Shown one piece after another: positions 7,246-26,071 of a DNA stretch of 26,071 nt. The notes below the pieces were generated by a model that worked only from the letters and a program-made list of their open reading frames with translations, did not search any database and had not been told where the DNA came from. Every line of letters starts with the position of its first letter. The first letter of the stretch is position 1. A program made the position numbers and the translations under genes. This stretch comes from a virus (taxonomy: Duplodnaviria > Heunggongvirae > Uroviricota > Caudoviricetes), in IMG/VR virus record IMGVR_UViG_2909309443_000007; one strand, written 5' to 3'.

Positions 7246-7269
7246 AATTACCTCTCGCTTTTCTGCAAT

Positions 7270-7293
7270 AAAAAAGGCACCATTTCTGGTGCC
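7270..7293 (-). terminator. Rho-independent terminator downstream of the J fragment
   Basis: Minus strand: GGCACCA-gaaa-TGGTGCC followed by TTTTTT. Confidence 0.55.
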
Positions 7294-7312
7294 CGTATCT
7301 GGGTTATAAAAT

Positions 7313-9163: not shown

Positions 9164-9164
9164 C

Positions 9165-9239
9165 TTCCCAGAGCACCACGCTGGCCGACTGCTCCGCACG
9201 GGTGCATTCATTCAGTGTTTCCTGCCGGATATCCTGCAT
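9165..9239 (-). pseudogene. L: Tail protein L, N-terminal 25-codon remnant
   Basis: ATG overlapping the M stop (ATGA) encodes [25 protein letters not shown] as recalled for lambda L, then jumps into J. Confidence 0.6.
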
Positions 9240-9568
9240 CAGTTCACCACCTGTTCAAACTCTGCGCTGAACTCAACACGCAGCATACTGACCCGCGACG
9301 ACCATTTTGCGCAGGTCACCTTTATCTGCCGCCACTCATAAGGCGGCGTCCACAGAAAGGCTTTCCAGCCCCCGTGCTCAGCCAGAAACGACTCCAGCGC
9401 CGTGGCCTCCTCACGGGAGACAGACAGCGTCACGCTGTACGTTTTCAGGTCAGCGTTCAGCCCGGCAGGCGCTCGCTGAGAATAGCCATCACCAAAGCGC
9501 ACCTTTCTTACGGAAGGGGCCGAAGCCACATCCATACCGGGTTTCGCTTTCCAGCGGAAGGTCTTCAT
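9239..9568 (-). CDS. M: Tail tip assembly protein M
   Basis: 109 aa, near-identical to recalled lambda gpM (MKTFRWK…EFEQVVN). Confidence 0.85.
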   Translation of the reverse strand: MKTFRWKAKPGMDVASAPSVRKVRFGDGYSQRAPAGLNADLKTYSVTLSVSREEATALESFLAEHGGWKAFLWTPPYEWRQIKVTCAKWSSRVSMLRVEFSAEFEQVVN

Positions 9569-12039
9569 CGTCCACCTCCGGAGAACAGACCACCATCGCG
9601 CATCTGTGCCTGAATTTCATCACGGGCCCCCTTACGGGCCATGTCATACACTGCCTTCATCATCTGTGGACCTGGCAGACCATTCGTACCGTCGTTCTGA
9701 ATCACCACGTGATTGTTCTGATTAAAATTAATGCCTTCCGCCCGCCGCATCTGCGCCGGACTTCCGGCACCGCCCACATAACCACCTTCCGCATAGCCGC
9801 GCATCAGCCGGTAGAGATTTCCCACGCCAATCCGGCTGGTTGCCTCCTTCGTGAAGACAAATTCACCACGGTGAACAATCCCCGCTGGCTCATATTTGCC
9901 GCCAGTTCCCGTAAATCCCCCGGTCGCAAAATGGAATTTTGCCGCAGCAGCCTGAATGGCTGTACCGCCTGACACTGATGCGCCACCACCGGCAGCACCG
10001 CCAATGGCGCTGCCGATACTCCCGACAATTCCCACCATTGCCTGCTTAAGCAGAATTTCTGTCATCATGGACAGCACGGAACGGGTGAAGCTGCGCCAGT
10101 TCTGCTCACTGCCGGTCAGCATCGCCGCCATATTCTGTGCAATACCATCAAAGGTCTGCGTGGCAGCACTTTTAACCTGCGACATACTGTCCGTGGCGCT
10201 CTCTTTCCACTCACTCCAGCCTGACCTGAGGCCTGCCATCCAGCTCCCGCGAAGCTGGTCTTCAGCTGCCCAGGTCTTTTTCTGCTCTGACATGACGTTA
10301 TTCAGCGCCAGAGGATTATCGCCATACTGTTCCTTCAGGCGCTGTTCCGTGGCTTCCCTCGCTGCCTGCCGGTCAGTCAGCCCCCGGTTTTTCGCATCAA
10401 TGGCGGCCCGTTTTGCCCGTTGCTGCTGTGCGAATTTATCCGCCTGCTGTGCCAGCGCGTTCAGGTGTTCCTGATAGGTGACCTTGTCGCCAAGTGCAGC
10501 CAGCTGGCGTTTGTACTCCAGCGTCTCATCTTTATGCGCCAGCAGGGATTTCTCCTGTGCAGACAGCTGGCGACGTTGCGCCGCCTCCTCCAGTACCGCG
10601 AACTGACTCTCCGCCTTCCACAAATCCCGGCGCTGCTGGCTGATTTTTTCATTCGCTCCACTATGCTGCTCAAGCATTTTTAGTTCAGCTTGTAACGCAA
10701 GAAGAGCTGCATGTGCTCGATCTTCCTGACGCTCTCCCGCAGCGGACTGCTTCGGCTTTTTCAGCGTCGCTTCATAGTCCTTTTTCGCCGCCGCCATCAG
10801 CGTGTTGTAATCTGCCTGCAGGATTTTCCCGTCTTTCAGTGCCTTGTTCAGTTCTTCCTGACGAGCGGTATATTTCTCCAGCGGCGTCTGCAGGCGTTCG
10901 TAAGCCTTCTGCGCCTCTTCGGTATATTTCAGCCGTGATGCCTCAGACTCGGCCCAGTCCTTTGCTGCCATCTCTCTGGCCTTTTCAAGATCGGCCTGCA
11001 ACGTGGCGGCTGAAAGCCCAAGTTGCGCATTCGCTCTGTCCTCCCATGCTCCCCGGAGATTGGCAAGAAATGCTGAGGTTTTACCGCGCCGGTGGCTCCG
11101 GCTCTGATACCACTGCCATTTTTTGTCCGCCTCATCAAAAGCCTTTTCTGCTTTCTCCAGCATTCCCTGGGCAGTGTCCGGGCGACCAATATCCAGCACC
11201 GCATCCCACATGGATTTGAATGCCCGTGCTGTCCTGTCTGCCCAGGTCTCCAGCGTGCCCATGTTCTCTTTCAGGCGGAGGGTCTGGTCATCAAACCCTT
11301 TCGTTGCGGCCTCGTTCGCCGCCTGCAATGCCCCGGCTTCATCTCCGGAACGCTGCAACTGAGCAACATACGCAATCTGCTCCGCCGTCACGTTATGGAA
11401 CTGACGTGCCATCGCTGTCAGTCCCGACGTCGGGTCTGTGGTCAGCTTCCCGAAGGCTTCAGCGACCTTGTCCACCTCCACGCCGGATGCAGAGGAGAAA
11501 CGCGCCACACTCTGGCTGATCGCCTCAAACTGCTCACCACCACGCACACCGGCATTCACCAGCGCCGTCAGTGACTCGCTGGTCTGGTTAAACGTCAGCC
11601 CTGCCGCCTGCCCGGCTCTGGACAGGACCAGCATACGATCTGCCGTCAGTCCCGCCTGATTGCCGGAAAGGACCAGCGTTTTGTTGAAATCGGACAGGGT
11701 TGAGTTGCCCTGATACCAGGCATACGCCAGCGCACCGGTCGCCACCGCCAGCGAGGTGGCCCCCACCATCGGCAGGGTGATCGCACCGGCAAGCCCCCTG
11801 AACATGGGGATCATCCCGCCGAAGGAGTCCTTCACCTGACCACCCTGTTGCAGCAGGATCAGCCACGGACTTTGCCCGCCTGCAAGCTGCGTGGCCACGT
11901 CAGTGAACTGTGCAGGCAGCATACGCATGGCGGCTTTATACTGTCCGACGGAAATGGCCATTGCGGCGGCACCGGGCACCGCCGTTCTGCTGATACGGCT
12001 GAGGTTTTCAACGGCCTGCTCAAGACCTTTTATGGCCAT
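9565..12039 (-). CDS. H: Tail tape measure protein H with its N-terminus replaced by the first 29 codons of Z (in-frame Z'-'H fusion)
   Basis: MAIKGLEQAVENLSRISRTAVPGAAAMAI matches recalled gpZ N-terminus; from SVGQYKAAMRMLPAQFTD… it matches recalled gpH to the C-terminus. 824 aa, shorter than lambda H. Confidence 0.75.
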   Translation of the reverse strand: MAIKGLEQAVENLSRISRTAVPGAAAMAISVGQYKAAMRMLPAQFTDVATQLAGGQSPWLILLQQGGQVKDSFGGMIPMFRGLAGAITLPMVGATSLAVATGALAYAWYQGNSTLSDFNKTLVLSGNQAGLTADRMLVLSRAGQAAGLTFNQTSESLTALVNAGVRGGEQFEAISQSVARFSSASGVEVDKVAEAFGKLTTDPTSGLTAMARQFHNVTAEQIAYVAQLQRSGDEAGALQAANEAATKGFDDQTLRLKENMGTLETWADRTARAFKSMWDAVLDIGRPDTAQGMLEKAEKAFDEADKKWQWYQSRSHRRGKTSAFLANLRGAWEDRANAQLGLSAATLQADLEKAREMAAKDWAESEASRLKYTEEAQKAYERLQTPLEKYTARQEELNKALKDGKILQADYNTLMAAAKKDYEATLKKPKQSAAGERQEDRAHAALLALQAELKMLEQHSGANEKISQQRRDLWKAESQFAVLEEAAQRRQLSAQEKSLLAHKDETLEYKRQLAALGDKVTYQEHLNALAQQADKFAQQQRAKRAAIDAKNRGLTDRQAAREATEQRLKEQYGDNPLALNNVMSEQKKTWAAEDQLRGSWMAGLRSGWSEWKESATDSMSQVKSAATQTFDGIAQNMAAMLTGSEQNWRSFTRSVLSMMTEILLKQAMVGIVGSIGSAIGGAAGGGASVSGGTAIQAAAAKFHFATGGFTGTGGKYEPAGIVHRGEFVFTKEATSRIGVGNLYRLMRGYAEGGYVGGAGSPAQMRRAEGINFNQNNHVVIQNDGTNGLPGPQMMKAVYDMARKGARDEIQAQMRDGGLFSGGGR

Positions 12040-12050
12040 ACATCCCCCTT

Positions 12051-12306
12051 TCAGCGGCGACGGTTAACGGCAGGCGGTACGCCCCGCCCAAGCCAGAGAT
12101 GACAGCTTCCGCCATCATCCGGCGAAATCCGGTCTATCCAGAAGTTTTCCTCACCGATGGTCAGCGTGTCGCCGCGCCGCAGCTGCCGCACATCATCAGT
12201 CCGGACAAACAGGGACGGGCTGGAGCCTTCAACGCGCACGCCCTGTCCGGCATAGCTGATATTTTCAGGGTCATCAAAAACACCACGTATCACAGCACCG
12301 GACTGC

Positions 12307-12336
<30 letters not shown>
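12051..12336 (-). pseudogene. Head-tail joining protein FII, C-terminal fragment
   Basis: MGTSATMTSGEQSGAVIRGVFDDPENISYAGQGVRVEG…PPAVNRRR matches recalled lambda FII from about codon 23. Joined directly to the truncated portal frame. Confidence 0.7.
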
Positions 12337-14177
<1,841 letters not shown>

Positions 14178-14181
<4 letters not shown>

Positions 14182-14402
14182 AGGTACTGCTCCAGCGGCA
14201 ACTGCAGCGCCTGCGCAATTTTCTTCAGTTGCGCTTCTTCTTCCTGACCGATACCGTCCTGGTCAGCGATATCCAGACACAGACACAGCACATTCACAGT
14301 ATCATCAGTATCTGCAACATCAGTCAGCTGACGAAGGGCTTCAGCATTAGCAGAACGCGGTGGCGCTTCATAACGGGCGCGGATATGAAAAAGGCCCGCC
14401 AA
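14178..14402 (-). other. 74-codon ORF with no ATG, probably a 3' gene remnant at the deletion scar between the tRNA cluster and W
   Basis: Acidic C-terminus …DIADQDGIGQEEEAQLKKIAQALQLPLEQYL. Only a TTG start, lying inside a hairpin next to the tRNA. Confidence 0.25.
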
Positions 14403-14424
14403 AGCGAGCCTGGAAAAATAAGCG

Positions 14425-14501
14425 TGGCGCGTTGTACTGGATTCGAACCAGTGACCGATTGCTTAGAAGGCAATTGCTCTGTCCGGCTGAGCTAACAACG
14501 C
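14425..14501 (-). tRNA. tRNA-Arg (anticodon UCU)
   Basis: Hand-folded cloverleaf: acceptor GCGTTGT/ACAACGC, anticodon loop CTTCTAA, T-arm GGTTCGAATCC, discriminator G plus CCA. Confidence 0.85.
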
Positions 14502-14514
14502 ATAATGCAGATAA

Positions 14515-14591
14515 TGGATTGCCATCGGGGACCCGAGCCCCACACAGCCAGTTTCGAAAGCTGGCACTCTCTGTCGATGAGCTAATGGCGG
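14515..14591 (-). tRNA. Degenerate tRNA-like sequence (Arg-like anticodon UCG), possibly a pseudogene
   Basis: D-arm and overall length are tRNA-like, but the acceptor stem has two terminal mismatches, the anticodon stem has a C-A mismatch, and the T-loop is CTCGGGT rather than TTCRAAT. Confidence 0.4.
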
Positions 14592-14598
14592 TATGTGA

Positions 14599-14674
14599 TG
14601 GTGGCCCTTGCTGGATTTGAACCAGCGACCTGGCGATTATGAGTCGCTCGCTCTCACCACTGAGCTAAAGGGCC
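14599..14674 (-). tRNA. tRNA-Ile2-like (anticodon CAU; Met not excluded)
   Basis: Hand-folded cloverleaf: acceptor GGCCCTT/AAGGGCC, anticodon loop CTCATAA, T-arm GGTTCAAATCC, CCA end. Closely resembles recalled E. coli ileX. Confidence 0.8.
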
Positions 14675-14723
14675 GGGAGCAGAATAATAATGGTGCGTAA
14701 TTAATTCTGCAATCTCATCCGTT

Positions 14724-15773
14724 TCAAACGATTAAATCCTGAACTTCCCTGACTGTCTGTTCAAAACGTCCTGTCTCCAGCTCAACACCAATCGCACAAC
14801 GCCCCAGTGCCATCGCCGCTTTTACCGTTGAACCTGAACCCATAAAAAAATCTGCAACCAGGTCTCCCGGACGACTGCTCGCGTTGATTATCTGCTGCAG
14901 CATTTCTGCCGGTTTTTCGCACGGATGTTTTCCTGGATAGTACTGCACCGGTTTATGCGTCCAGACATCGGTGTACGGAACCTGCGCCGTCACACCGAAA
15001 TACCGCCGCAAATTTTTATATTCACTCAGCAGTTCCGTGTACTGCCGGTTCAGCTCACTGTATGTGCTGACCAGCTGGTGGTGTGGCTTTTCCAGTTCCC
15101 CGCGCTGATGTTTTTCTGCCGCAACACGCGCAAACAACGCCTGCAATTTGTTGTAATCACCCTCGTTCGGTAACTGCCACTGACTGGTACCAAACCAGTG
15201 CGAAGCCATGTTTTTCTTTCCGGTGGCTTCCGCTATCTGTTTTGACGTTATTCCCAGTGATTTACGCGCATCACGAAAGTAAGAAATCAGCGGGGCCATG
15301 ACGTGCTGTTTTAGCTCGCGCCCCTGTGCCACATAGCCATCATCTTTCGGGCGATACGGTCCCTGATAATGTTCTGCAAACAGAATGCGCTCTGTTGCCG
15401 GAAAATACGCCCGCAGACTTTCCTTATTGCACCCGTTCCAGCGTCCGGACGGCTTCGCCCAGATAATGTGGTTCAGCACATTAAAGCGCTCACGCATCAT
15501 GATTTCGGTGTCAGATGCCAGGCGATGACCACAGAACAGGTAAAGACTTCCGGTAGGCTTCAGTACCCGCCAGAACTGCGCCAGACACTGGTCCAGCCAT
15601 TTCAGGTAATCATCGTCGCCCTCCCACTGGTTATCCCAGCCCTCGGGCTTCACTTTAAAGTATGGCGGGTCTGTGACTATCAGATCGACAGAATTTTCCG
15701 GTAAGGTCTGGATAAACTCCAGGCAATCAGCGTTGATTAACTCACAACTGGATATTTTTACAGTATTAATCAT
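14724..15773 (-). CDS. DNA amino-methyltransferase (N6-adenine or N4-cytosine), orphan
   Basis: DPPY motif (…LIVTDPPYF) near the N-terminus and an FxGSGST AdoMet-binding motif near the C-terminus. No restriction endonuclease partner nearby. Confidence 0.8.
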   Translation of the reverse strand: MINTVKISSCELINADCLEFIQTLPENSVDLIVTDPPYFKVKPEGWDNQWEGDDDYLKWLDQCLAQFWRVLKPTGSLYLFCGHRLASDTEIMMRERFNVLNHIIWAKPSGRWNGCNKESLRAYFPATERILFAEHYQGPYRPKDDGYVAQGRELKQHVMAPLISYFRDARKSLGITSKQIAEATGKKNMASHWFGTSQWQLPNEGDYNKLQALFARVAAEKHQRGELEKPHHQLVSTYSELNRQYTELLSEYKNLRRYFGVTAQVPYTDVWTHKPVQYYPGKHPCEKPAEMLQQIINASSRPGDLVADFFMGSGSTVKAAMALGRCAIGVELETGRFEQTVREVQDLIV

Positions 15774-15922
15774 AGATCAATAAGCACTTCTCTGATAGGC
15801 TCATACCGCTTTTGCGCAAAGCAGATGGGCCTGAGGTTTGCTTGTGACCCCAACGCATGAGCAGATGGCTGGCAGGTGCCGCTAACACCCCCAGCCGCCC
15901 ATTACCACAAATTAAAAAGCCT

Positions 15923-16120
15923 TCACTGCGGAAGGCGTCTGTAACAACCGAACTGATAATCTGCCAGACCCGCCATAACAAGCTGAGTCAGTATTAACTG
16001 GCAGCGTTCGCGTGAAAGGTAAGTATTCTGCGCAATTTCCCCGACGGTCGCCGGTTCGGTGATGCTTAATTCATTAAACACCACTCTGGCGGTTTCGGTC
16101 ATATCCTGCTGTTTTAGCAT
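15923..16120 (-). CDS. Small hypothetical protein (65 aa), possible helix-turn-helix
   Basis: ORF trimmed to the ATG at 16120, downstream of the terminator hairpin. Confidence 0.3.
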   Translation of the reverse strand: MLKQQDMTETARVVFNELSITEPATVGEIAQNTYLSRERCQLILTQLVMAGLADYQFGCYRRLPQ

Positions 16121-16243
16121 GCCTTTTTCCCTTTCCCGGTTAACGTGACATACCAATACCTCTTGTCGAAAAAGCCAGCAAGCTGAAAGACCGGCATTCG
16201 CAACCACCAGCGCATTTAACGTCCTGTACCGCTTTTCGGGCAC

Positions 16244-16267
16244 AAAAAAACCCGCATAAAGCGGGTT
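16244..16267 (-). terminator. Rho-independent terminator about 85 nt downstream of the Q-like gene (tR'-like)
   Basis: Minus strand: ACCCGC-tttat-GCGGGT followed by TTTTTTT. Confidence 0.55.
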
Positions 16268-16351
16268 CTTTCAGGTGTCCATGTCTGCTATTCGCCTCGC
16301 GGTATAGCTTTGCGAAGCGTAGCTGGATTGAAACAGTTTATGCGTAAAAAA

Positions 16352-16906
16352 TCAAGACATTTTTTGAGCAAACGATTCTCGCATAGGGATGTATAGCGCA
16401 TATTCAGCAACAGCTAACCAATTAGCAATTCGCTTTTCGCATGTACTAAAACACCATTCCGGGTGCACCTCATTCAACAATTCAGCCATTTTGCGTTTAC
16501 TCATCCCCCGCCCTTCGTACCTTTGCCGCAGGATATCAATCAATCCAGGATAACGTGCAAGCGCTTTACTTATCACCCCATCAATGCGTAACGCCTCTGC
16601 ATCAGTACAGTGAGACAACCAGCTCTTCTGTCTGCCAGCGATCATCTCTCGCAAGAATGCTTCCAGCTCTGGTTTATCAATCCCTGACTCCCTGATTCTA
16701 CGCAGGGCTTCATTGATTGCGGTTTTTGTCAGTTTTTTGGATGCCAGCAACTGATTGAACATATTTCCTGGTTTGCCACCACCTATATACGACCAACGCC
16801 CCCACATCCGTAATTTCCCCTGGATCCAGACGGCTTCCAGCGTTTTTAGACGTAAATGCTCGCCGCTTTTGCCTGTAATTTCCGGGTATATCATATTTAC
16901 GATCAC
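16352..16906 (-). CDS. Putative late-gene antiterminator (Q-like), 184 aa
   Basis: Called mainly from position: directly downstream of rusA, followed by a terminator and the late region. Sequence family not recognised with certainty. Confidence 0.5.
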   Translation of the reverse strand: MIVNMIYPEITGKSGEHLRLKTLEAVWIQGKLRMWGRWSYIGGGKPGNMFNQLLASKKLTKTAINEALRRIRESGIDKPELEAFLREMIAGRQKSWLSHCTDAEALRIDGVISKALARYPGLIDILRQRYEGRGMSKRKMAELLNEVHPEWCFSTCEKRIANWLAVAEYALYIPMRESFAQKMS

Positions 16907-17268
16907 TCACTCTCAATTTTGTAAATCTTCACGCCCAGCCGCCCCCCAGGAACGCGCTGACCGCGCACAATATTGATTTCATCAAACTGCTCGTCGTCTA
17001 TGAGAAGTCCGGCATGCGTCAGCGCATCCAGTGGTGCTTTCAGGATATTGTCCAGGTCACGACGACGTTTATCCGGTGGCTCTGCAATAATCTTTATCGC
17101 CAGCCTTCCGGACAGGTTTAATTTCAGCCGCTGCTGGCGAACAATAAGCGCCACATCACGGCGATAACGCTCACCGGCTTTTGATACAAAATATGTGCTG
17201 CCACGACGTCGCCAGTAAGTGTTCACCGTTGGCGGGTAAGGCAAAACAAATTCTATGCGTTCAGTCAT
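16903..17268 (-). CDS. rusA: Holliday junction resolvase RusA
   Basis: 121 aa with the RusA-type …DKRRRDLDNILKAPLDAL… motif. Overlaps the downstream gene start (ATGA). Confidence 0.85.
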   Translation of the reverse strand: MTERIEFVLPYPPTVNTYWRRRGSTYFVSKAGERYRRDVALIVRQQRLKLNLSGRLAIKIIAEPPDKRRRDLDNILKAPLDALTHAGLLIDDEQFDEINIVRGQRVPGGRLGVKIYKIESE

Positions 17269-18252
17269 TCATGCTTTCCACTTCAGGACACCCGAATTTC
17301 TCGCGTGCATTAAAAAACGAATCAGCAACAACAGCTGGCTGCCGTGTTTTTCTTCAAAATCTTTTACCCCGGCGTGTAGTTCGCTATGGCATTTACGGCA
17401 CAGCGGAATAACAAACAAATCATCAGCCTTTGTTCCCATCCCTCCCAGTCCATGACCAATGATGTGATGCGGATCATCTGCCTGATTACCACACGTCATG
17501 CATTTCTGCGTTTTTACCCAACGCGTGTATACAGGCATCTCTTCCCGTCGTGGTTTCTGGCGCTGGAGATACTGAGCCGGTGACTCCGGATCAACGGCAA
17601 TGCTTACCACCGTCTTTTCCTGTGGCGGGTTTTGCTGGTGGGCGTGAGGCAGTAGCGCAATATTTTTTGTGCGCTGCTTCAGCATGCTGGTGGCGGTCTG
17701 CTCTCCCGGCACGATGTCGCTCTCGCGGTATACTGAGCGAATTTTTTCCGCGCGTAATCCCAGTGAACGACGTAACACCGTCTCCGGTAGTGCGTCCGCT
17801 ACGTTATTTATGGTTGCCCACCAGGATAATTCAGCCAGCGATAATTCCCGCTCCTGCGTGCCATTCATTGCGTGGCGGATGACATCAATCATCCATGCTG
17901 ACAGGTTTTGGTGAGCAAGCTGCCCGAGTGATTCGGAAGTCTGGTTACGCAGCTGGTTGTCGCAGTGCCAGCACAACACCATCGCGCCGGTACCGTAACG
18001 ATGTATGACGGTTTCACTGTGATGGTAGTCACCATGAGGCCACTGGCAGGATTTAACGTGGCGTAACAGCCAGTCAGACAATGCACCAGCACCACCAGCA
18101 GCACGAATCACCCGCTCATCGCTGAAAAATGGCAGTAATGATTTATCCTCCGCCAGCGGCTGGCGAACAGCAGGAACGACTCCGGACGGCAGACCGCGCA
18201 TGCTTTTCGGTTCCGGCTCCACCAGAACTCGAGGGTTATGAAATACCTGCAT
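17269..18252 (-). CDS. Nin-region protein with a C-terminal Cys/His (HNH/zinc-finger-like) motif, DUF968-like
   Basis: C-terminus CMTCGNQADDPHHIIGHGLGGMGTKADDLFVIPLCRKCHSELHA. Start trimmed to an internal Met; the N-terminus is uncertain. Confidence 0.55.
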   Translation of the reverse strand: MQVFHNPRVLVEPEPKSMRGLPSGVVPAVRQPLAEDKSLLPFFSDERVIRAAGGAGALSDWLLRHVKSCQWPHGDYHHSETVIHRYGTGAMVLCWHCDNQLRNQTSESLGQLAHQNLSAWMIDVIRHAMNGTQERELSLAELSWWATINNVADALPETVLRRSLGLRAEKIRSVYRESDIVPGEQTATSMLKQRTKNIALLPHAHQQNPPQEKTVVSIAVDPESPAQYLQRQKPRREEMPVYTRWVKTQKCMTCGNQADDPHHIIGHGLGGMGTKADDLFVIPLCRKCHSELHAGVKDFEEKHGSQLLLLIRFLMHARNSGVLKWKA

Positions 18253-18325
18253 GGATTCACGGCCCGGTTTTAGCACCACCAGCCCAAGTTCCGGTACCGG
18301 AACAGGTCGAAGTAATACCCGCACG

Positions 18326-18598
18326 TTACCTCCAGATGCGTTGCTGGAATGTGCGGGACGGACGCGGTGGGCGTTCGGAATAAGGGAGCCTGACATAGAT
18401 TATCCAGTGACGATAATCGAGGCTGAGGGCTTTCTTAATCTCGTATCCGCGTCTGCGGTAGTTATGAATTAGCCATTCGGCCTGTTCTTCAGTACATGGT
18501 GGGTGTTGGTACCAGTCGGTTTTAAATGCGTGTGAACGCCGCCCATGCCGGATGGCAAGGGCGGTATCAGAATTGTGAAATTTGGTTTTGTGCGCCAT
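18326..18598 (-). CDS. Hypothetical nin-region protein (about 90 aa)
   Basis: ORF trimmed to MAHKTKFHNSD… so that it starts downstream of the hok terminator. Confidence 0.35.
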   Translation of the reverse strand: MAHKTKFHNSDTALAIRHGRRSHAFKTDWYQHPPCTEEQAEWLIHNYRRRGYEIKKALSLDYRHWIIYVRLPYSERPPRPSRTFQQRIWR

Positions 18599-18670
18599 CG
18601 GTTGTCTCTGCTGGCGCAGCAGGTGCCAGTTGTTCAGGCTGGCGTGCGAATTGTAAACCAGAATGCCAGG

Positions 18671-18697
18671 AAAAAACAAAACCCGCCGAAGCGGGTT
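18671..18697 (-). terminator. Rho-independent terminator downstream of hok
   Basis: Minus strand: AACCCGC-ttcg-GCGGGTT followed by TTTTGTTTTTT. Confidence 0.55.
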
Positions 18698-18765
18698 AAG
18701 TGCGGGTGCGTTGAGGATGCCTGACTCATCAGAGGTGGCGAGGGATTTCTCCCTCACCTGGTCTC

Positions 18766-18921
18766 TTACTCCTCAGGTTCGTAAGCTGTGAAGACAGCGA
18801 CCTCCTTCTGGCCGGTTCGGATTCGTACCTCGCAGAGGTCTTTCCTCGTTACCAGTGCCGTCACTATGACGGTTAAACAGATGACGATCAGGGCGATTAA
18901 CATCGCCTTTTGCTGCTTCAT
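18766..18921 (-). CDS. hok: Hok/Gef-family type I toxin (51 aa), HokD-like
   Basis: MKQQKAMLIALIVICLTVIVTALVTRKDLCEVRIRTGQKEVAVFTAYEPEE is near-identical to recalled HokD. The longer upstream frame is consistent with an overlapping mok; an antisense Sok RNA is expected upstream but was not mapped. Confidence 0.8.
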   Translation of the reverse strand: MKQQKAMLIALIVICLTVIVTALVTRKDLCEVRIRTGQKEVAVFTAYEPEE

Positions 18922-19304
18922 AGCCTGCTTCTCCTTGCCTTTCGGCACGTAAGAGGCTAACCTAGATTTGCCGTTCATAGATTGAGCCTCAGATTAATGT
19001 TAAACGTCTTGCAGGACGCGTAACGTTAACTGGGGCTTTTCTCTATCTGCCTTTTGGTGGCATGCCTGAGACAGATAACCTCAAGCACCCGCAGTAATTT
19101 TACATAAAGGTTATGGTTCCTTTCAATAACTCAACAATTTCCCATCTAAATACTACTCATATAGTCATATAGGCTGGCGATAATTTAAAGATAAGACTCT
19201 CTCTTTTTCTCCACCACATAATGCATTACCAACGCAAAAGTTACCATGGTAATTATATCTTAACGAAAAATACCCCGCGAACATATTCTACTCAACAAAA
19301 AATT

Positions 19305-19360
19305 TTGCGTACGCATTATTCTTTGTAGTATCTTAAGTATGTAATTATTTTTTACAGGAA
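19305..19360 (+). promoter_or_regulatory. Candidate sigma-70 promoter and Shine-Dalgarno for the two-gene cassette
   Basis: TTGCGT (19305-19310), then TAGTAT about 15 nt downstream, then AGGA 10 nt before the ATG at 19370. Very AT-rich. Confidence 0.3.
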
Positions 19361-19369
19361 ATTTTTGCA

Positions 19370-20284
19370 ATGGCTAGCAAGCGCTTTTTCTTCGATTTTT
19401 ATCAATGTCACACTATAAGCACTGATACAAATGCAGGAGTTAATTCACCTGAAGCTGTTTTTTCAAAAATTTTTGAGTCATACAGCGAAGGCCGAGACAA
19501 AACTGTACGTAAAATAGGAAATAAACTAGTTGAAATGCGCTTCATGGAAAGAACCGACTATGGTTTCAGGGGAGTTATAGGAAAACACAGAACCAATAAT
19601 CTCCCTCATGTTGCTGTAGCCGGAGGTGAAGAAAGAGAAATTAAACTTGAAATCAATGAAAACTTATTAGAAAAAGCTTATTTTCATTTTTATACCCAAG
19701 ACTCAGTTTTAATAATTCAACGAAACAGACTCTGTTATGGCTGGTTGCTATTAAGTAAATATCTTTCCAACAGTTCACAAAATACAACTGTTAATCCCAT
19801 CATTCAGACCAGTAGTTTAAAGTGGTTGATGCGTAATGAAGTTCGAATCAAAACTCTAGAAATCGGTATCGCTCGGCCAAAGAATGTGCAACTATATGAG
19901 GATGTTGAACATAACTTCAACAATGCATTGATAGCCACTCTAAATGGTACTAATTCTGCCAAAGTAAATCTTACATTACGTGGGGATAGTCGTTCTGAAG
20001 ATCCTGAATCTCGCTATCTAGGTTCTCAACTAAAAAGAGCCTTTAAAGAAACACTAGAGACTTTTGAGGTTGAAAAACTTAAACTAGAAACCCAAGACAT
20101 TGAGACCGGTGTACAGCATCCTATCGATCTTGTAGCAGACAAATTAGTCTACTACACAGATGTTGAACTTGGAGGTAGGTATCCATTAGTTGGCAGCATT
20201 TGGAGCGCCTTAACTCTTGCAAAAGATAGTAAAGATGATGAATTGAAGGCATACTTTGGAGTAGCCAATCAAAGAGTTGATTAA
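19370..20284 (+). CDS. Hypothetical soluble protein (304 aa), candidate sensor component of a two-gene module
   Basis: Long ORF in an AT-rich island. No recognisable catalytic motif (no P-loop). Charged, probably helical C-terminal region. Confidence 0.55.
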   Translation: MASKRFFFDFYQCHTISTDTNAGVNSPEAVFSKIFESYSEGRDKTVRKIGNKLVEMRFMERTDYGFRGVIGKHRTNNLPHVAVAGGEEREIKLEINENLLEKAYFHFYTQDSVLIIQRNRLCYGWLLLSKYLSNSSQNTTVNPIIQTSSLKWLMRNEVRIKTLEIGIARPKNVQLYEDVEHNFNNALIATLNGTNSAKVNLTLRGDSRSEDPESRYLGSQLKRAFKETLETFEVEKLKLETQDIETGVQHPIDLVADKLVYYTDVELGGRYPLVGSIWSALTLAKDSKDDELKAYFGVANQRVD

Positions 20285-20299
20285 TTTTGGAGCGATGGT

Positions 20300-20779
20300 A
20301 TGAAAAAGGGGAAATTGATAACTTTGTACAGTTATGGTTATAATTTAGCCTCTGTTGTTTTTTGTATCATCGCATGGCCTCTTTCTGCAAAGCTAAATTT
20401 TGCACAAATTCAGCCAATCGCTTCGGCCGTTTCTACATTTTCTGGGATATTATTTGGCTTTGTTTTAGGTTCGCTTACCTTGATTGCTTCAGCTAGAGAT
20501 AATACGCTAATTAGAAATATAGGAAAAACTGGTTATTTGAAAAAACTGACCGAAGAAATGCACTCCACTATGGGATGGTTACTATCAGTTTGTATTATTT
20601 TTATCATTTTATTATTTTTCCCTGATACACTAAAGTTTAAATTCCCACTAGTAAAAGATGCCGACGAGCACACATATGCCCAACTATTACTCCAAGTGGG
20701 AATTTTTTTCCTGCTTATTACATTTAAAAAATTTTATACTACCTGGTCGCGTCTAAAGGACATAACAAGGCTCATGTGA
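20300..20779 (+). CDS. Hypothetical membrane protein (159 aa) with four predicted transmembrane helices, candidate effector
   Basis: Four hydrophobic stretches of about 18-24 residues. Starts 15 bp after the upstream stop with GGAG in the gap. Confidence 0.6.
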   Translation: MKKGKLITLYSYGYNLASVVFCIIAWPLSAKLNFAQIQPIASAVSTFSGILFGFVLGSLTLIASARDNTLIRNIGKTGYLKKLTEEMHSTMGWLLSVCIIFIILLFFPDTLKFKFPLVKDADEHTYAQLLLQVGIFFLLITFKKFYTTWSRLKDITRLM

Positions 20780-20784
20780 TATAT

Positions 20785-21174
20785 CTATAATTGCACATAA
20801 AAAGACAATCCTAACAATACTCCCATTGTAAGTTGTATATTCTTTCTTATTGTTCCATCTGAACATTTGTACCTTCGTGCTATTGTACGCAAAGATATAC
20901 CTATAACAAAATGAGCGATAATTAACTCATAGTCATCTATTCTATATTGTTTAAGCTTCAACATGCAGGTATCAATCATACGACCTTCATCGTTGCCACA
21001 CTGACGGCGTAATTTCTTACCATGAGGTACTACATCTTTATATTTATCAGCCACTTGCTGCCAGTTGATAGAACTATTTCCAGCTGCAGCCCAAGCCCCC
21101 CCAACTGTCCAAAATATCATATATATTAGCATTGCTATCCACCTTTTTTTTATATTCTTTTTTGAGGCAACCAA
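20785..21174 (-). CDS. Hypothetical protein with a sigma-70 region-4-like helix-turn-helix C-terminus
   Basis: …YELIIAHFVIGISLRTIARRYKCSDGTIRKNIQ… resembles ECF-sigma region 4. Hydrophobic N-terminus. Overlaps the upstream 82-aa ORF by about 100 nt, so a frameshifted single gene is possible. Confidence 0.4.
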   Translation of the reverse strand: MVASKKNIKKRWIAMLIYMIFWTVGGAWAAAGNSSINWQQVADKYKDVVPHGKKLRRQCGNDEGRMIDTCMLKLKQYRIDDYELIIAHFVIGISLRTIARRYKCSDGTIRKNIQLTMGVLLGLSFYVQL

Positions 21175-21310
21175 GAAGCATCCTGGCCATCGTTATTATT
21201 TCTATACTTGTAACTGATTCATAAGCATCAGGAGAAATAATCCTCCCATCACTTAATGCCCTTTCACTAAGATTTGCTATTTCCAATAATCGTTCTTTAG
21301 TTATTTCCAT
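21074..21310 (-). CDS. Hypothetical protein (about 78 aa)
   Basis: AT-rich ORF with GGAG before the second ATG. Could be the N-terminal part of a split sigma-like gene. Confidence 0.35.
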   Translation of the reverse strand: MEITKERLLEIANLSERALSDGRIISPDAYESVTSIEIITMARMLLGCLKKEYKKKVDSNANIYDILDSWGGLGCSWK

Positions 21311-21424
21311 TATTATCTCCACCGCCCTTTCGGGCGGCCTCCTGATGTTCTGAGGGTGCAGAAATCCCTCCGGTTAAGGATTAAATTTTATTTACAGTGC
21401 TGGATTTAATTATTCAGATTTGGA

Positions 21425-21700
21425 TTATGCTTTCTCTTCACTCCGGTATACAAGAATTACAACGTCACCTCTGCTAATCACGCGAGCTGGCTCTCCTGGT
21501 TCTATACTGTCAATATCGAAGGTCTCAAAAAACGCATTCATTGCCTTCTGCCGCTGCGTCTGTTTACAGCGTTTATTCCATTCTTTCAGTAACATCAGTG
21601 ACAGCCACCGCCATGAGCAGAACATGATGTAGCACCAACCAAGAAGCGCCAGCCCCGTATTGAGGGCCGTACCAATCGTCATTGTTGCGTCGATATTCAC
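21425..21700 (-). CDS. Hypothetical small membrane protein (91 aa)
   Basis: GTG-initiated ORF with a hydrophobic N-terminal segment. Confidence 0.35.
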   Translation of the reverse strand: MNIDATMTIGTALNTGLALLGWCYIMFCSWRWLSLMLLKEWNKRCKQTQRQKAMNAFFETFDIDSIEPGEPARVISRGDVVILVYRSEEKA

Positions 21701-21986
21701 TGTACCTCCTCCTGGAAAATAACTGCATGCCCCAGTTTCTCCGCCAGCGCCAGTTCTGCCTTAGCACCTGCTGACCGCTGCCAGCCTTTCAGCATGTAAA
21801 TCGCATCCACACAACGAATCATTGCCATGCAATATCCATGTAGTGCGGCTGTGTCAGCCCATCCGGAAGCACAGCCGGATTTAAAACGGTATGCCCTTCC
21901 CGTTTCAGTTCCTCTTCCGCATTGTGAAACGCCTCACGGTTGAAATTTTTATACCCGGTCATTGGACCGGCGATATAGACTCTCAC
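21697..21986 (-). pseudogene. DUF4406-like lambdoid protein, apparently frameshifted
   Basis: Hand translation gives (M)RVYIAGPMTGYKNFNREAFHNAEEELKREGHTVLNP…MDIAWQ stop, then in another frame …CVDAIYMLKGWQRSAGAKAELALAEKLGHAVIFQEEVQ. Consistent with a 1-bp deletion near 21800. Confidence 0.45.
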
Positions 21987-21988
21987 TC

Positions 21989-22411
21989 TCACGCCATCAC
22001 CTCCTGAAAATTACCCTGATAAAACGCCAGCACTCGCTGCATAACCTCACTCTTCCGGCACTCGCGACAGATTATGTTCTGACGCCTGTCGTAGCGACGT
22101 ATTTCTCCGTCAGGTAATGACCAGATAAGGTCCGGATCAACCGCAGATGGTTTCTTCAGCTTTGCCCTTGAGAGCTTTTTACGGGCATTTTGCCAGTCCT
22201 TACGCGCCTGTTCAGACGGGAATAACCCGTAACCAGAGTTGTATACATCGCCACTGGCAACCAGCTCTCTGGCCAGAACGCTCATCAGATATCTTGTTGC
22301 CCCAGTTTTAGTTTCCAGTTGTCGTAACGTCTCGCGCCCACTCTGGCGTACGAGTTCAACAACCTGCCCTTTAATTTTTTCCCGCTCTTCTTGTGTAAAA
22401 ACTTTTGCCAC
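21989..22411 (-). CDS. Hypothetical phage replication-region protein (140 aa)
   Basis: ORF immediately downstream of the replication initiator. Basic C-terminal part. Confidence 0.5.
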   Translation of the reverse strand: MAKVFTQEEREKIKGQVVELVRQSGRETLRQLETKTGATRYLMSVLARELVASGDVYNSGYGLFPSEQARKDWQNARKKLSRAKLKKPSAVDPDLIWSLPDGEIRRYDRRQNIICRECRKSEVMQRVLAFYQGNFQEVMA

Positions 22412-22451
22412 AAGTCCTCCTGAAAATTACCTCATGACCAGAAATCAACAC

Positions 22452-23528
22452 TTACCCCCTGAAGCCCGGTGGAATTTCGGTATCCGGTTCAGAAATATGA
22501 TTCACACAACGCTGGTTGTTCGTGCCGCTTACCGGGAGCAGCCAGGGGTTTTCAAAATTCCGGTCCGGTCCAAAAAACGTCGTCGCTCGCTGAACAAATT
22601 CCGTTCCCGTTTTCCCGGTAGCCGCAAGGTATCTTGCGTAACGCCTCACGCCATCCAGCATGGCCTCTGGTGACACCCCCTCGCGTAATCTGGCCTTCCA
22701 GGCACTGAAAGCGGATTTCTTCGGGTTTGCCCCAGCACGCAACGGGTATTCCCGCCAGACCTGTTCGAACACATCCGGATAATCCACTCGTCTCACAGGC
22801 TGCCCGGTGTTTTCCGTGACTACCCGATCGGCTTCCCGCTGAATGGCGGAATCGGCTTCAGGCTGCTGCAGTTGGTGTGATTGCTCCGGCCTTGCGGTCA
22901 TCACCTGCTGCACAGCGCCCGAATCGGCTTTCAGCGCATACGCTGAATCGGCTTCCGGTGTCGTGCCTGCTGGCTGACCAAGATTGACGGTCTGAACATC
23001 CCCTGCCTGGTTCGTGGCGTTTTTTACGCCATGGACCATAGTGTTTTGATCTTCTTGATCTGTATCTTTATCTGTATCTTTATCTGTCGTGACTCGTCGT
23101 GACATGTGCGTGACATTTCGTGACGCGCCGTGACAATCGCCATTTTGTTCCCGCTTTCTTTCCCTCTCTCGCTGCGCCCTCTTGCGCTCTGCAGGAGATT
23201 TTGCGGTTTGCGAAATATTGCCGTTGTCCTCTTTAAGCACCTGGCGTTTTTCCCATCCAGTGATTAAATCACCATCAAGTACCCGCCCCTGCATCGTCTG
23301 CAAAATTGAATCAATTACCTCTTCTGTCACGTCGAGCGCACTTGCCAAATCTTCTGTCGTGACATCAATGTGACCTCGCGTGACATTTCGTGACGCGCTC
23401 ACCAGGAGGTGGATATACACTGCCATCACTGTTGCAATTGACTGCCCTGACACCCTGGCAATTGTTCGCCACTTAGGGTCATTTGGCATGTCATGCCATA
23501 ATCTGAGCCAGGCGTTAGCCATACTCAC
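22452..23528 (-). CDS. Replication initiation protein (replisome-organiser/O-like) with internal origin iterons
   Basis: N-terminal domain resembles the phage replisome-organiser fold. Two iteron arrays lie inside the gene, as in lambda O. Confidence 0.65.
   Translation of the reverse strand: MSMANAWLRLWHDMPNDPKWRTIARVSGQSIATVMAVYIHLLVSASRNVTRGHIDVTTEDLASALDVTEEVIDSILQTMQGRVLDGDLITGWEKRQVLKEDNGNISQTAKSPAERKRAQRERERKREQNGDCHGASRNVTHMSRRVTTDKDTDKDTDQEDQNTMVHGVKNATNQAGDVQTVNLGQPAGTTPEADSAYALKADSGAVQQVMTARPEQSHQLQQPEADSAIQREADRVVTENTGQPVRRVDYPDVFEQVWREYPLRAGANPKKSAFSAWKARLREGVSPEAMLDGVRRYARYLAATGKTGTEFVQRATTFFGPDRNFENPWLLPVSGTNNQRCVNHISEPDTEIPPGFRG
23096..23142. repeat. Iteron array 1: five CGTGAC repeats at about 10-bp spacing
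   Basis: CGTGAC at 23096, 23106, 23117, 23127 and 23137, read directly. Confidence 0.65.
23358..23394. repeat. Iteron array 2: four (C/T)GTGAC repeats at about 10-bp spacing
   Basis: Repeats at 23358, 23369, 23379 and 23389. The 19-mer GTGACATTTCGTGACGCGC is shared exactly with array 1. Confidence 0.65.
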
Positions 23529-23593
23529 CTCTTCTGATACCGAATCTTTTTACTCACGAGTTGCCGGAAGTGATTCGATATGGCTATTATCAC

Positions 23594-24019
23594 TCAATGC
23601 ACTGCCACAGCATTTCCTGCCGGGCCACCACGGTTCATCTGATTGAAACCGGCGATTGCCACTGCGACAAAATCATCAGCGTCTCTCACCAGTCGCTCCC
23701 GCGTCTCCACCAGCTCCCGAAAATAAGCTGAACTGTGGCTGCGCATTCTGGCCACCAGCAAAGGTGGCATTGCCTTTTCGATCGCTGGTAACAACGCCTG
23801 AATTTTTTCAACTGCATCAGGGGTGTCTTTCTCTATCCAGCGGAAAATTTTCTGGGTATTGCGAGCCAGGGCTTCCGGATGGCTGTCGTCATACAGTTCT
23901 GGGAACGTCATACCCAACTCAAAATAAGCCTGGGTTATTCCAGCTGCTGGAACTTTTTCGCCATCAGGACGCGCCCAGGCATTCATCGCCATGCGGATGT
24001 GTTCATGCTTGATTTTCAT
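23594..24019 (-). CDS. YdaT-like (CII-analogue) protein
   Basis: 141 aa starting MKIKHEHI…, matching the recalled start of Rac YdaT. Sits directly downstream of the Cro-like gene. Confidence 0.55.
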   Translation of the reverse strand: MKIKHEHIRMAMNAWARPDGEKVPAAGITQAYFELGMTFPELYDDSHPEALARNTQKIFRWIEKDTPDAVEKIQALLPAIEKAMPPLLVARMRSHSSAYFRELVETRERLVRDADDFVAVAIAGFNQMNRGGPAGNAVAVH

Positions 24020-24246
24020 GAATCCCCCCCTTGGTTAGAAGGCGGATTATGATCAGAACCGGGAATGACAACCGTCGGTATGTGTAACTCATATTTGAGC
24101 GCCCCGGCAGTGACTGCCTGAATTAGCAACGCCCATTTCCACGGAACCTCTTCCCCCCACATGCTGACTGTGGTTTTTGACGTTCCTAGAACTGCGGCTG
24201 TTTTAACAACTCCGCCAAAATAGCCTAATACTTCTGATTTTTTCAT
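24016..24246 (-). CDS. Cro/YdaS-like helix-turn-helix regulator
   Basis: 76-aa ORF from MKKSEVLGYFGG… Divergent from the CI-like gene across a 91-bp operator region. Confidence 0.6.
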   Translation of the reverse strand: MKKSEVLGYFGGVVKTAAVLGTSKTTVSMWGEEVPWKWALLIQAVTAGALKYELHIPTVVIPGSDHNPPSNQGGDS

Positions 24247-24275
24247 GAGTCGCTCCATAAAACTGAACGCCAAAA

Positions 24276-24337
24276 GTTTAATAATCAAAACCAAAGAAAG
24301 TCAAGAAACAAAACCATCTGTGTTTTAAAATCAAAAC
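24276..24337. promoter_or_regulatory. Candidate operator/divergent promoter region: two 16-bp imperfect palindromes
   Basis: GTTTAATAATCAAAAC (24276-24291) and GTTTTAAAATCAAAAC (24322-24337), 14 of 16 identical. The second ends at the repressor ATG, so the repressor mRNA may be leaderless. Confidence 0.4.
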
Positions 24338-24976
24338 ATGAGCAAGCAAACAATATCTGAACGCATAACCCAACGTATGCATGCGCTAAACCTGAAAGGC
24401 AAAGACCTTGTCAATGCCACTGGCGCATCAAAAGGCTCCGTAAGTCAATGGATGAACGGTGGAGGAGCGCCGTCCTCGCGTTACATAAGTTCACTGGCAA
24501 AGATATTGAAAGTAAACGAAAATTGGCTTCTTAATGGAGGAGAGTTAAATACAGGTGATTCGCTTGATCTATCTTTACCGCCGATAAAAACGGTTCCGCT
24601 ACTATCACTTCAGCAGGCAGCAAGCTGGAGTGATTATATGAAAAATTCCTCAATAACCTCTTGTGTGCAGCTTGTCGGAGAAATCCCGGCCAATACCTTT
24701 GCAGTTGTTCTAGAGAGTGACAGTATGTCAACATCTGGTGGGGGAGTTTCCATCCCAAATGGTTCAACAGTTTTTGTTGATCCCGATCGAACCGTACAAC
24801 CAGGAAATATTGTCCTTGCCTTACCCAAAGGGACCACAACACCTGTCATTCGTAAACTGGAGATAGAAGGGCCGGATATTCTTTTAGTCCCCACGAATCC
24901 TCGCTACCCTTCAATTATGCTGGATGATCTATCTTGCATATTGGGCGTATGCTTTAAAATTCAACAAGATATTTAA
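24338..24976 (+). CDS. CI-like prophage repressor (helix-turn-helix plus S24 LexA-type autopeptidase domain)
   Basis: N-terminal XRE-type HTH (…LVNATGASKGSVSQWMNG…). C-terminal S24 signature with Ser in …ESDSMS… and Lys in …VIRKLE…. Confidence 0.8.
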   Translation: MSKQTISERITQRMHALNLKGKDLVNATGASKGSVSQWMNGGGAPSSRYISSLAKILKVNENWLLNGGELNTGDSLDLSLPPIKTVPLLSLQQAASWSDYMKNSSITSCVQLVGEIPANTFAVVLESDSMSTSGGGVSIPNGSTVFVDPDRTVQPGNIVLALPKGTTTPVIRKLEIEGPDILLVPTNPRYPSIMLDDLSCILGVCFKIQQDI

Positions 24977-25040
24977 CCAACCTCATCTATTTGATTAACT
25001 GTATGCCATCGTGGTGATGGCTTAACAGCTGCCTGCTTAA

Positions 25041-25089
25041 AATGTTTTGATAAAAAAACATTGACCTGTAAAGTTCATTTTTCTAAACT
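25041..25089 (+). promoter_or_regulatory. Candidate leftward-operon promoter with an overlapping 8-bp-arm palindrome
   Basis: AATGTTTT-gataaa-AAAACATT (25041-25062), then TTGACC (25061-25066), 17 nt, TAAACT (25084-25089). Confidence 0.4.
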
Positions 25090-25268
25090 TCATTCATTCC
25101 CTCACTCCACCCCACAGAATGCAGGGCAATACTTCGAGTTACCCGGCAGTGGTCAGGGGTTAAGTAGCCAGCCCGAGGCGTAAGAACATGACGGCAGGGT
25201 TCAACTTTAATAACTATGCAGCAGGTTTTTGTTCCGCTACCCCGGCGTTAAGGGGAAATGAGGTCAAC

Positions 25269-25421
25269 ATGGATACTATCGATCTTGGCAACAACGAATC
25301 TCTGGTGTGCGGCGTGTTTCCCAACCAGGACGGCACGTTCACCGCGATGACGTATACCAAAAGCAAAACGTTTAAAACCGAAGCTGGCGCGCATCGCTGG
25401 TTAGCAAGAAACTCTGACTGA
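25269..25421 (+). CDS. YdaF-like small protein (50 aa)
   Basis: MDTIDLGNNESLVCGVFPNQDGTFTAMTYTKSKTFKTE… resembles recalled Rac YdaF. GAGG Shine-Dalgarno upstream. Confidence 0.55.
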   Translation: MDTIDLGNNESLVCGVFPNQDGTFTAMTYTKSKTFKTEAGAHRWLARNSD

Positions 25422-25432
25422 TGAGGTTGACG

Positions 25433-26071
25433 ATGGAATTTAAAGATTTACCTACTTCAATCCAGGAGATTGCAGCACACACACTTCGTCATCGTCTGAA
25501 CGAACTTGCATTGGAATCGGTAACGAAAAAAGACACTGATAATATGGCTCGTAATGTGCGCGATGCGTTTACCGGATTGTATTTCTGTGCGTCTGTAAAT
25601 AAACACGACTCAGATAGTGTGGCAAATAAAATTGCAGAAACGACAGCGCAAAACATCAATACGAAACCAACGGAAGAAGAAATTGATCAGTTTGCTCATG
25701 ATGCTGGTTTAAAAAACAAGAAAGAAAAATCGCCATATGCGGGGAACATGTTTGTTTATGACAATCTCATCAGAATTCGTGGCGAAATTCCGGCGGAATA
25801 CCTGGCAAGAGTCCATCAGGCATTGCTTAAAAATCTGGAAACAGAATTATTTGATGGCAACACTAACGGTTTCTTCATGGTATCAGGCCTTGAGAAAGAC
25901 TGGGATGCAGAAAAACGCTGGAATGTTGCCACATGGTTATTCAGTAACAGAGCCGCTGCCCTGGAAGCTTCGGCATGTATTTGCGGCCTGTTCTTAACAG
26001 ACCACAAATATAATCTGGATGTGTACAGTTATATTTACGCTGAACACGGTCCGCTCTGGATTGACTGGTAA
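25433..26071 (+). CDS. Hypothetical early-region protein (about 212 aa)
   Basis: ORF with GAGG before the ATG at 25433. No recognisable motif. Stop codon is the last three bases of the window. Confidence 0.45.
   Translation: MEFKDLPTSIQEIAAHTLRHRLNELALESVTKKDTDNMARNVRDAFTGLYFCASVNKHDSDSVANKIAETTAQNINTKPTEEEIDQFAHDAGLKNKKEKSPYAGNMFVYDNLIRIRGEIPAEYLARVHQALLKNLETELFDGNTNGFFMVSGLEKDWDAEKRWNVATWLFSNRAAALEASACICGLFLTDHKYNLDVYSYIYAEHGPLWIDW

Follow-up and report, generated by a model that had tools for sequence, protein, structure and literature searches.

A probable diverged relative of the RexAB phage-exclusion module in the nin/Q region of a lambdoid Escherichia coli prophage

What is the role of a pair of genes that lies antisense to the lytic operons of the prophage that carries it? 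The question is raised by a stretch of Caudoviricetes DNA of 26,071 nucleotides (nt) (IMG/VR record IMGVR_UViG_2909309443_000007; the whole stretch is referred to as the window), in which two adjacent plus-strand open reading frames (ORFs), here called A (19370-20284; 304 amino acids, aa) and B (20300-20779; 159 aa), form a small cassette. A first-pass annotation, made from the sequence, had put the pair forward as a candidate RexAB-like abortive-infection module. The cassette is most likely an uncharacterised, highly diverged RexAB relative that standard defence-gene finders miss. More specifically, it is probably a diverged RexAB-type two-component phage-exclusion (abortive-infection) module, present as an independently transcribed accessory insert ('moron') in a lambdoid prophage, within its nin/Q region. 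This reading is supported by the fold of A, the homology between B and RexB, the pairing of the genes, their order, the topology of B, the mobility of the cassette and a relative that adjoins a cI gene.

A and B are separated by a spacer of 15 nt (20285-20299, plus strand) that holds a GGAG Shine-Dalgarno sequence at 20289-20292, which implies translational as well as transcriptional coupling and bears out the tight coupling noticed at first sight. An AGGA Shine-Dalgarno sequence precedes A at 19356-19359. The island that holds the two genes has a GC content of 36%; over 19201-21200 the fraction is 0.34-0.37, versus 0.52-0.56 in both flanks and 0.50 over the window as a whole. The neighbours are on the minus strand, namely hokD (18766-18921) on one side and a Q-family antiterminator gene (20785-21322), with the replication-region genes further right, on the other, and the cassette is antisense to the early-right and late (lytic) operons. 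The AT-rich setting and the opposite orientation were thus described correctly in the first-pass annotation. Cassette DNA is found at an identity of at least 99% in 19 of 5,426 complete E. coli genomes, on the chromosome in each case; all 19 are human isolates. A search of viral contigs with the single protein sequence brought up near-identical prophages and nothing else. In the annotated strain 504838 the lambdoid prophage is integrated beside potC, with the cassette flanked by hokD and by a gene called 'antiterminator Q family'; RefSeq labels A as 'DUF6731 family protein' and B as 'hypothetical'. The repressor gene of this prophage is located about 4 kb away, in line with the earlier remark that the pair is not beside the repressor. 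A and B are real genes and not chance ORFs, because conserved homologues with identities down to 24-42% stay adjacent across several phyla.

A link to the Rex system at the level of sequence is provided by B (20300-20779, plus strand; phrog_8552), a predicted inner-membrane protein and presumed ion-channel or membrane-damaging effector. The AlphaFold2 model of B (predicted local distance difference test, pLDDT, 79; predicted template modelling score, pTM, 0.70) consists of four long helices (3-30, 34-64, 79-105 and 126-158) and a short helix in the loop, in agreement with the four helices that had been read from the sequence. Kyte-Doolittle hydropathy gives three strong segments and one weaker one, which corresponds to the fourth helix (1.54). 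Together, the helices of the model, the hydropathy and the positive-inside charge counts give a four-helix protein with both termini and the central loop in the cytoplasm; the loop (residues 65-88) carries charges of +5/-3 and is placed in the cytoplasm by the positive-inside rule. Lambda RexB is likewise predicted to have cytoplasmic termini and a four-helix topology. The loop, ARDNTLIRNIGKTGYLKKLTEEMH, encoded by 20492-20563 (plus strand), is the best-conserved part of the family, with N68, L70, N73, T77, G78, Y79, L80 and H88 invariant or nearly so, and profile-profile comparison aligns it to the RexB loop SRTRRLAKIREYGYM. The first-pass annotation had pointed to a loose resemblance between B and RexB in this segment. 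Indeed, LIASARDNTLIRNIGKTGY is present at residues 61-79 of B and LIGSRTRRLAKIREYGY in lambda RexB, and the profile alignment puts both in register by pairing SLTLIASARDNTLIRNIGKTGYL of B with ALTFLIGSRTRRLAKIREYGYM of RexB.

A plain BLASTP comparison of B with lambda RexB returned nothing. The PADLOC RexB model matches B with an E-value of 1.5e-3 (lambda RexB as a control: 9e-61) and 22 of the 25 members of the B family, the best at 5e-6. A B superfamily of 155 proteins, nearly all of 135-160 aa, was then defined by an exhaustive search with a profile against 1.84 billion representatives. Among the best 150 of these 155 proteins the PADLOC RexB model reaches E<=1e-3 in 63 (best 6e-8) and the narrow Pfam RexB model matches one; in neither the family nor the superfamily does any other defence model recur. 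An hhalign comparison of the superfamily with a lambda-type RexB family of 17 members gives a probability of 80% (E-value 1.4e-5) over an alignment that spans the end of helix 1, helix 2 and the loop after it. The cleaned hidden Markov model (HMM) of the superfamily recognises 15 of these 17 RexB proteins; lambda RexB scores 19.4 bits and its reversed sequence -6.1, and none of 4,000 shuffled sequences (2,000 global and 2,000 block-local) reaches 19.4 bits, the maximum being 14.3. Moreover, a bridging protein (P0115) is recognised by the B profile (8e-14), relates to lambda RexB at 6e-9, has a weak Pfam RexB match on record and is encoded directly downstream of a DUF6731 gene. By these profile comparisons, B is a remote relative of RexB at the level of the superfamily.

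Some weaker similarities of B were set aside. Rank 6 in a Foldseek search with the B model is a 165-aa protein of Sbash (TM-score 0.56), and Sbash gene 31 encodes 165 aa. HMM and hhalign comparisons of the A and B profiles with Sbash gp30 and gp31 stayed at noise level, and because there is no sequence similarity to gp31 the fold resemblance is generic. The P4-hotspot candidate PDC-M18 was likewise rejected: A has no match, and the matches of B to PDC-M18B (E-values 0.0066 and 0.035) are found in only 5 and 3 of the 25 family members. Scattered weak matches link members of the B superfamily to PDC-M18B, PDC-M53B and PDC-M67B, and a 321-aa A-like protein (locus L025) to PDC-M67A. These matches suggest that some of the unnamed two-gene candidates of PADLOC may be further RexAB-like lineages.

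A (19370-20284, plus strand) lacks hydrophobic segments, as expected of the soluble protein of about 300 aa that had been annotated, and is a presumed cytoplasmic DNA-binding sensor or activator. It matches the Pfam domain of unknown function DUF6731 with 47.6 bits (cut-off, the gathering score, 27) over residues 1-268 of 304, as do all 27 members of its family, and it also matches phrog_7651, of unknown function. Searches with PADLOC, NCBIfam and Pfam RexA, and sequence and profile searches of the PDB, gave no match for A; as positive controls, lambda RexA scores 1e-96 and 1e-108 on the RexA models. A 'DUF4747' label carried by one homologue in UniRef was dropped, as no member matches Pfam DUF4747 and lambda RexA matches PF15969 only; DUF4747 was reported in RexA and gp30 (Gentile 2019). 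The AlphaFold2 model of A, computed without templates from the alignment of its family (pLDDT 74.8, pTM 0.70), contains the two-domain, RdgC-like fold of RexA, and A is thus predicted to carry a RexA/RdgC-type fold. On this model A and RexA likely share ancestry, for which the sequence level gives no support.

Could the likeness be convergent, with A a DNA-binding protein of the RdgC/Iml3 type and of unrelated function, and B a generic four-helix membrane protein? Functionally different proteins do share the RexA fold, four-helix bundles are common, the Foldseek results are not significant and A has no sequence signal to RexA. However, in the structural comparison with A, RexA scores over 4 Z units above any other member of its fold class; RdgC itself, a recombination-associated DNA-binding ring protein whose housekeeping gene stands alone, with no membrane partner, scores far below RexA. 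In addition, the match between B and RexB survives the shuffling controls, and the pairing, the gene order, the spacing and the cI-adjacent relative all reproduce rexAB. We therefore regard convergence as very improbable.

The pairing is strict. In at least 10 cases close homologues of A and B are found on the same contig, and in Photobacterium and Vibrio they carry consecutive locus tags. A scan of species-representative genomes returned 12 A loci, in Pseudocitrobacter, Photobacterium, Aeromonas, Pseudoalteromonas (two), Endozoicomonas, Marinobacterium, Stenotrophomonas, Nitrosomonas, Sulfuritalea, Geomonas and a metagenome-assembled genome of the Saprospiraceae. An HMM-confirmed B follows A directly in each of the 11 loci that can be evaluated, namely those not truncated by a contig end. 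The loci of Klebsiella, Marinobacterium, Photobacterium and V. vulnificus keep the same order. Of three distant B-like proteins, one (P0196) is encoded just downstream of a DUF6731 gene, another (P0108) has a 321-aa partner that the A HMM matches at 1e-32, and the third (P0230) follows a gene for a 343-aa protein that is itself downstream of a divergent helix-turn-helix pair. The two genes are thus obligate partners, in different phyla and on unrelated mobile elements alike.

The carriers of the pair differ widely. In Klebsiella they are lambdoid prophages with the cassette between Q and the holin gene, again in antisense; in a Mu-like prophage the cassette lies ahead of the lysis genes; in Photobacterium and V. 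vulnificus it is found on serine-recombinase islets. In V. vulnificus the islet (5195-12915) has, in addition to a large serine recombinase, a DprA-like gene and a Mob_Pre relaxase; its neighbour is a truncated Mg-chelatase/ComM-type gene, a likely target of integration. The pair of Photobacterium sanctipauli (8001-14691) is on a small islet with a large serine recombinase. Between the E. coli and the Klebsiella prophages the DNA is 73% identical over A, B and Q (19369-21133). Q also adjoins the cassette in Klebsiella, and the three genes move as one block, because this identity runs from the start of A through B into Q. The region upstream of A differs from the Klebsiella copy, and the DNA homology begins exactly at the ATG of A.

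These contexts also bear on whether B might be a toxin- or holin-like protein and A its antidote or regulator, in an addiction or lysis-timing module that does not sense phages. The cassette does adjoin the hok/sok addiction locus, holin and lysis genes adjoin it in the Klebsiella and Marinobacterium prophages, and leaky co-expression of the RexAB-like pair RexABpp of P. putida (PP_5643/PP_5644, prophage P1) is toxic (PMC12894663). In the lambdoid prophages, however, the cassette is antisense to the lysis operon, and the pair also occurs outside phages; the fold predicted for A is that of a DNA-binding clamp (RexA/RdgC) and not of a known antitoxin, and in the characterised Rex-type systems the A protein activates B and does not neutralise it. 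We consider such a module quite improbable. Lysis-cassette, toxin-antitoxin and chance-ORF readings were rejected on orientation, context and conservation.

The hokD ORF (18766-18921, minus strand) and an Rfam match to the sok antitoxin RNA (18916-19090, minus strand; 108.7 bits) lie just to the left of the region upstream of the cassette, and this type I toxin-antitoxin locus and the Rex-like pair adjoin within one accessory cluster of the nin region.

The likeness to lambda extends to the arrangement of the genes. Lambda rexA and rexB are likewise 15 nt apart, in the same order, and this pair (826-2115) is AT-rich as well, with a GC fraction of 0.41 versus 0.45 in the neighbouring cI. Canonical RexA is found in 19 of 50,697 phage records, 15 of them with sequences at least 99% identical to lambda RexA. 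A single one of the 50,697 records encodes a relative of A, that of Pseudomonas phage AUS531phi (MN585195). There, at 2958-5144, a cro-like gene on the minus strand is followed on the plus strand by a CI-type repressor gene, an A gene (298 aa, 2e-59) and a B-type gene (2.5e-33), which is the layout of the lambda immunity region; locus L026 is similar. In AUS531phi both A and B genes are annotated as hypothetical, and the B-type gene (118 aa) may have been annotated too short at its 5' end.

The presence of the AUS531phi and L026 relatives within immunity regions would also fit an A that acts as a RexA-like modulator of the resident switch between lysogeny and lysis, with B as an accessory, rather than in defence. 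In lambda, RexA binds to DNA and biases the bistable switch in a manner that does not depend on RexB (PMC11077077). The pair studied here, however, is located at some distance from the repressor gene, and relatives are found on non-phage serine-recombinase islets, where there is no switch for them to modulate. That B is strictly retained (11/11) moreover argues for selection on a two-protein function. A role restricted to the switch is, in our judgement, unlikely.

Several results weigh against a RexAB-type module. At the sequence level, the Pfam and PADLOC RexA models have no match at E<=10 among the 27 members of the A family, and hhalign gives less than 1% probability for A versus RexA, with shallow alignments in which the RexA side was lambda RexA, alone or joined by a second RexA that is 44% identical and belongs to a canonical cI-rexA-rexB locus; divergent RexA sequences in the phage collection number only 4. 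The link between A and RexA thus depends on a medium-confidence model in which residues 170-240 score about 55-67, and the structural alignment covers 164 of 304 residues. A Foldseek search of the PDB with this model returned nothing significant, the weak top matches being the kinetochore proteins Iml3 and CENP-N. For B, the Pfam RexB model (PF15968) matches neither the protein nor its 25 family members, E-values of about 1e-3 are also obtained for unrelated membrane families, cytochrome b561 among them, and a Foldseek search of predicted viral structures (BFVD) gave no significant match, with lambda RexB outside the top matches. The profile of the B family alone reaches a probability of 5% versus RexB, in the same register, and because this was too weak the search was broadened to the superfamily. 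As to the locus, lambda rexAB lies downstream of cI, whereas the cassette lies in the nin/Q region and converges with Q, and therefore it cannot be co-transcribed from pRM. A consensus scan found no plus-strand promoter upstream of A and no enrichment over shuffled sequences, and a terminator scan, likewise without enrichment over shuffles, led to no assignment. The first-pass annotation had let the cassette start at 19305, which adds 65 nt upstream of A in which no convincing promoter was found. The presumed site of the cassette's own promoter is the AT-rich intergenic region upstream of A (18980-19369, plus strand). The earlier proposal of a RexAB-like module is largely supported, by the predicted RexA fold of A, the remote relation of B to RexB and the pairing. 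The comparison with RexA and RexB that it had suggested gave a positive result for the fold of A and the superfamily of B and a negative one for the curated Pfam models.

The same results explain why the cassette would escape the standard tools. The lambda Rex proteins, as controls, score 1e-61 to 1e-108 on the curated Pfam and PADLOC models. A does not match the RexA sequence family (PF15969 and PADLOC RexA), and B stays below the curated RexB threshold (PF15968), with a remote match to the RexB model of PADLOC. PADLOC would, on these scores, not call the cassette, because A and B fail the curated sequence definitions of Pfam and PADLOC.

Is the cassette then a member of a system that has been described already? 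The RexAB-like systems reported number five by a recent count (PMC12894663), to which Sucellos is to be added. The Sbash gp30/gp31, CarolAnn gp44/gp43 and Butters gp30/gp31 pairs each consist of a soluble protein and a protein with four transmembrane segments, like A and B, and the Sbash and Butters pairs are separated from the repressor, as is the cassette. The predicted topology of Sbash gp31 is the same as that of RexB and B, and its cytoplasmic loop, equivalent to residues 65-88 of B, is essential for defence, which is abolished by R70A and D73A (PMC6426596). Sbash gp30 (372 aa) is larger than A, and neither protein of the pair is similar in sequence to A or B. In P. putida, over-expression of the A protein of RexABpp causes B-dependent arrest and membrane permeabilisation (PMC12894663). 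Compared by description, RexABpp is near a CI-like repressor, unlike the cassette, and RexBpp is longer (>181 aa) and without detectable homology to RexB, whereas B (159 aa) has a remote RexB signal.

A close candidate is Sucellos (SclA/SclB), a two-gene system with its own promoter from a chromosomal integron cassette of V. cholerae, in which both genes are required, infected cells die early and SclB is a predicted pore (bioRxiv 10.1101/2024.07.02.601686). If the cassette were a member of this validated system it would essentially be known already. The description fits well: two genes that are both required, an abortive outcome, a sensor with a pore-forming membrane effector, an own promoter, and a resemblance to RexAB that is seen in predicted structures and is invisible to the Rex Pfam models, the last of which holds for the two-gene cassette also. 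Sucellos occurs in Vibrio and in enterobacterial prophages, as do the A and B families, which are found in Photobacterium as well. In addition, a Nitrosospira phage has a Sucellos call by DefenseFinder 2, and one member of the A family comes from Nitrosomonas. On the other hand, plain blastp finds Sucellos homologues mainly in V. cholerae and often in Salmonella, besides enterobacterial prophages (bioRxiv 10.1101/2024.07.02.601686), whereas no homologue of A or B from V. cholerae or Salmonella was present in a search of 5.8 billion proteins or in the species-representative genome scan. Because of this absence, the comparison, which was made by description and distribution only, suggests that the cassette belongs to a subfamily other than Sucellos, and membership of Sucellos seems to us possible, though less probable than not by some way. 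In either case, structure-level homologues of RexAB have already been published as defensive, namely RexABpp of P. putida and Sucellos of Vibrio, and the cassette adds no new principle.

Returning to the reading of a diverged RexAB-type module, we infer its mode of action by analogy with lambda RexAB, Sbash gp30/gp31, P. putida RexABpp and Vibrio Sucellos, as a DNA-sensing A that would trigger a depolarising B. In the lysogen the cassette is expected to be expressed, because it is antisense to the early-right and late operons. A, as a dimer, would bind DNA non-specifically and sense either a replication or recombination intermediate of the infecting phage, or a protein. A would then engage the central cytoplasmic loop of B, upon which B would oligomerise or open as a cation-permeable pore. 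Membrane potential and ATP would collapse, and the infected cell would arrest or die before the invader completes its cycle. Speculatively, converging transcription could dampen the cassette when the resident prophage itself goes lytic.

A more far-reaching proposal can be formulated, which we hold to be distinctly doubtful. DUF6731 proteins and their RexB-like partners could form a distinct RexAB-type clade that crosses phyla (Gamma- and Betaproteobacteria, Desulfobacterota and Bacteroidota) and stands apart from lambda Rex, Sucellos and RexABpp, a clade that current defence finders do not see. In lambdoid prophages the stereotyped placement next to Q, and convergent with it, would then be a safety switch, in which antisense, antiterminated late or early-right transcription shuts the suicide module off on induction of the resident prophage.

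The Q-family gene that converges with the cassette (20785-21322, minus strand) is frameshifted by an extra C at 21096. This insertion of 1 nt splits it into ORFs of 82 aa and 129 aa versus an intact coding sequence of 174 aa in strain 504838; either the gene is a pseudogene in this strain or the insertion is a sequencing error in a homopolymer. Further left, at the usual position, there is another Q-like gene (DUF1133). The window is collinear with the locus of strain 504838 from 13884 to 26071, at 99.96% identity. Its left part (10118-13884) is rearranged relative to that strain, with morphogenesis segments that map to non-contiguous places, which points to a late region that is mosaic between strains. 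Upstream of the lysis genes there are two prophage-borne transfer RNA genes (14428-14501 and 14602-14674, minus strand; annotated as Arg and Ile in strain 504838). At the left end of the window (41-244, minus strand) there is an Rfam IS009 match of 129 bits, in what is tail-gene territory in a related strain.

RexAB was the first abortive-infection system to be described, the mechanism of its activation is still in question, and the curated models detect only close relatives of the lambda proteins. Both the PADLOC Rex models and the Rex Pfam models miss the lineage of DUF6731 and B; the latter were relied on by Gentile 2019 and by the authors of Sucellos (bioRxiv 10.1101/2024.07.02.601686). 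A literature search found no mention of DUF6731, and through the link to RexA this domain gains a functional hypothesis. The cassette provides a tractable example in E. coli, present in human enterotoxigenic isolates, and the conserved cytoplasmic loop of B suggests specific mutants. A comparison of such distant pairs could show which features of the interface between sensor and channel are essential.

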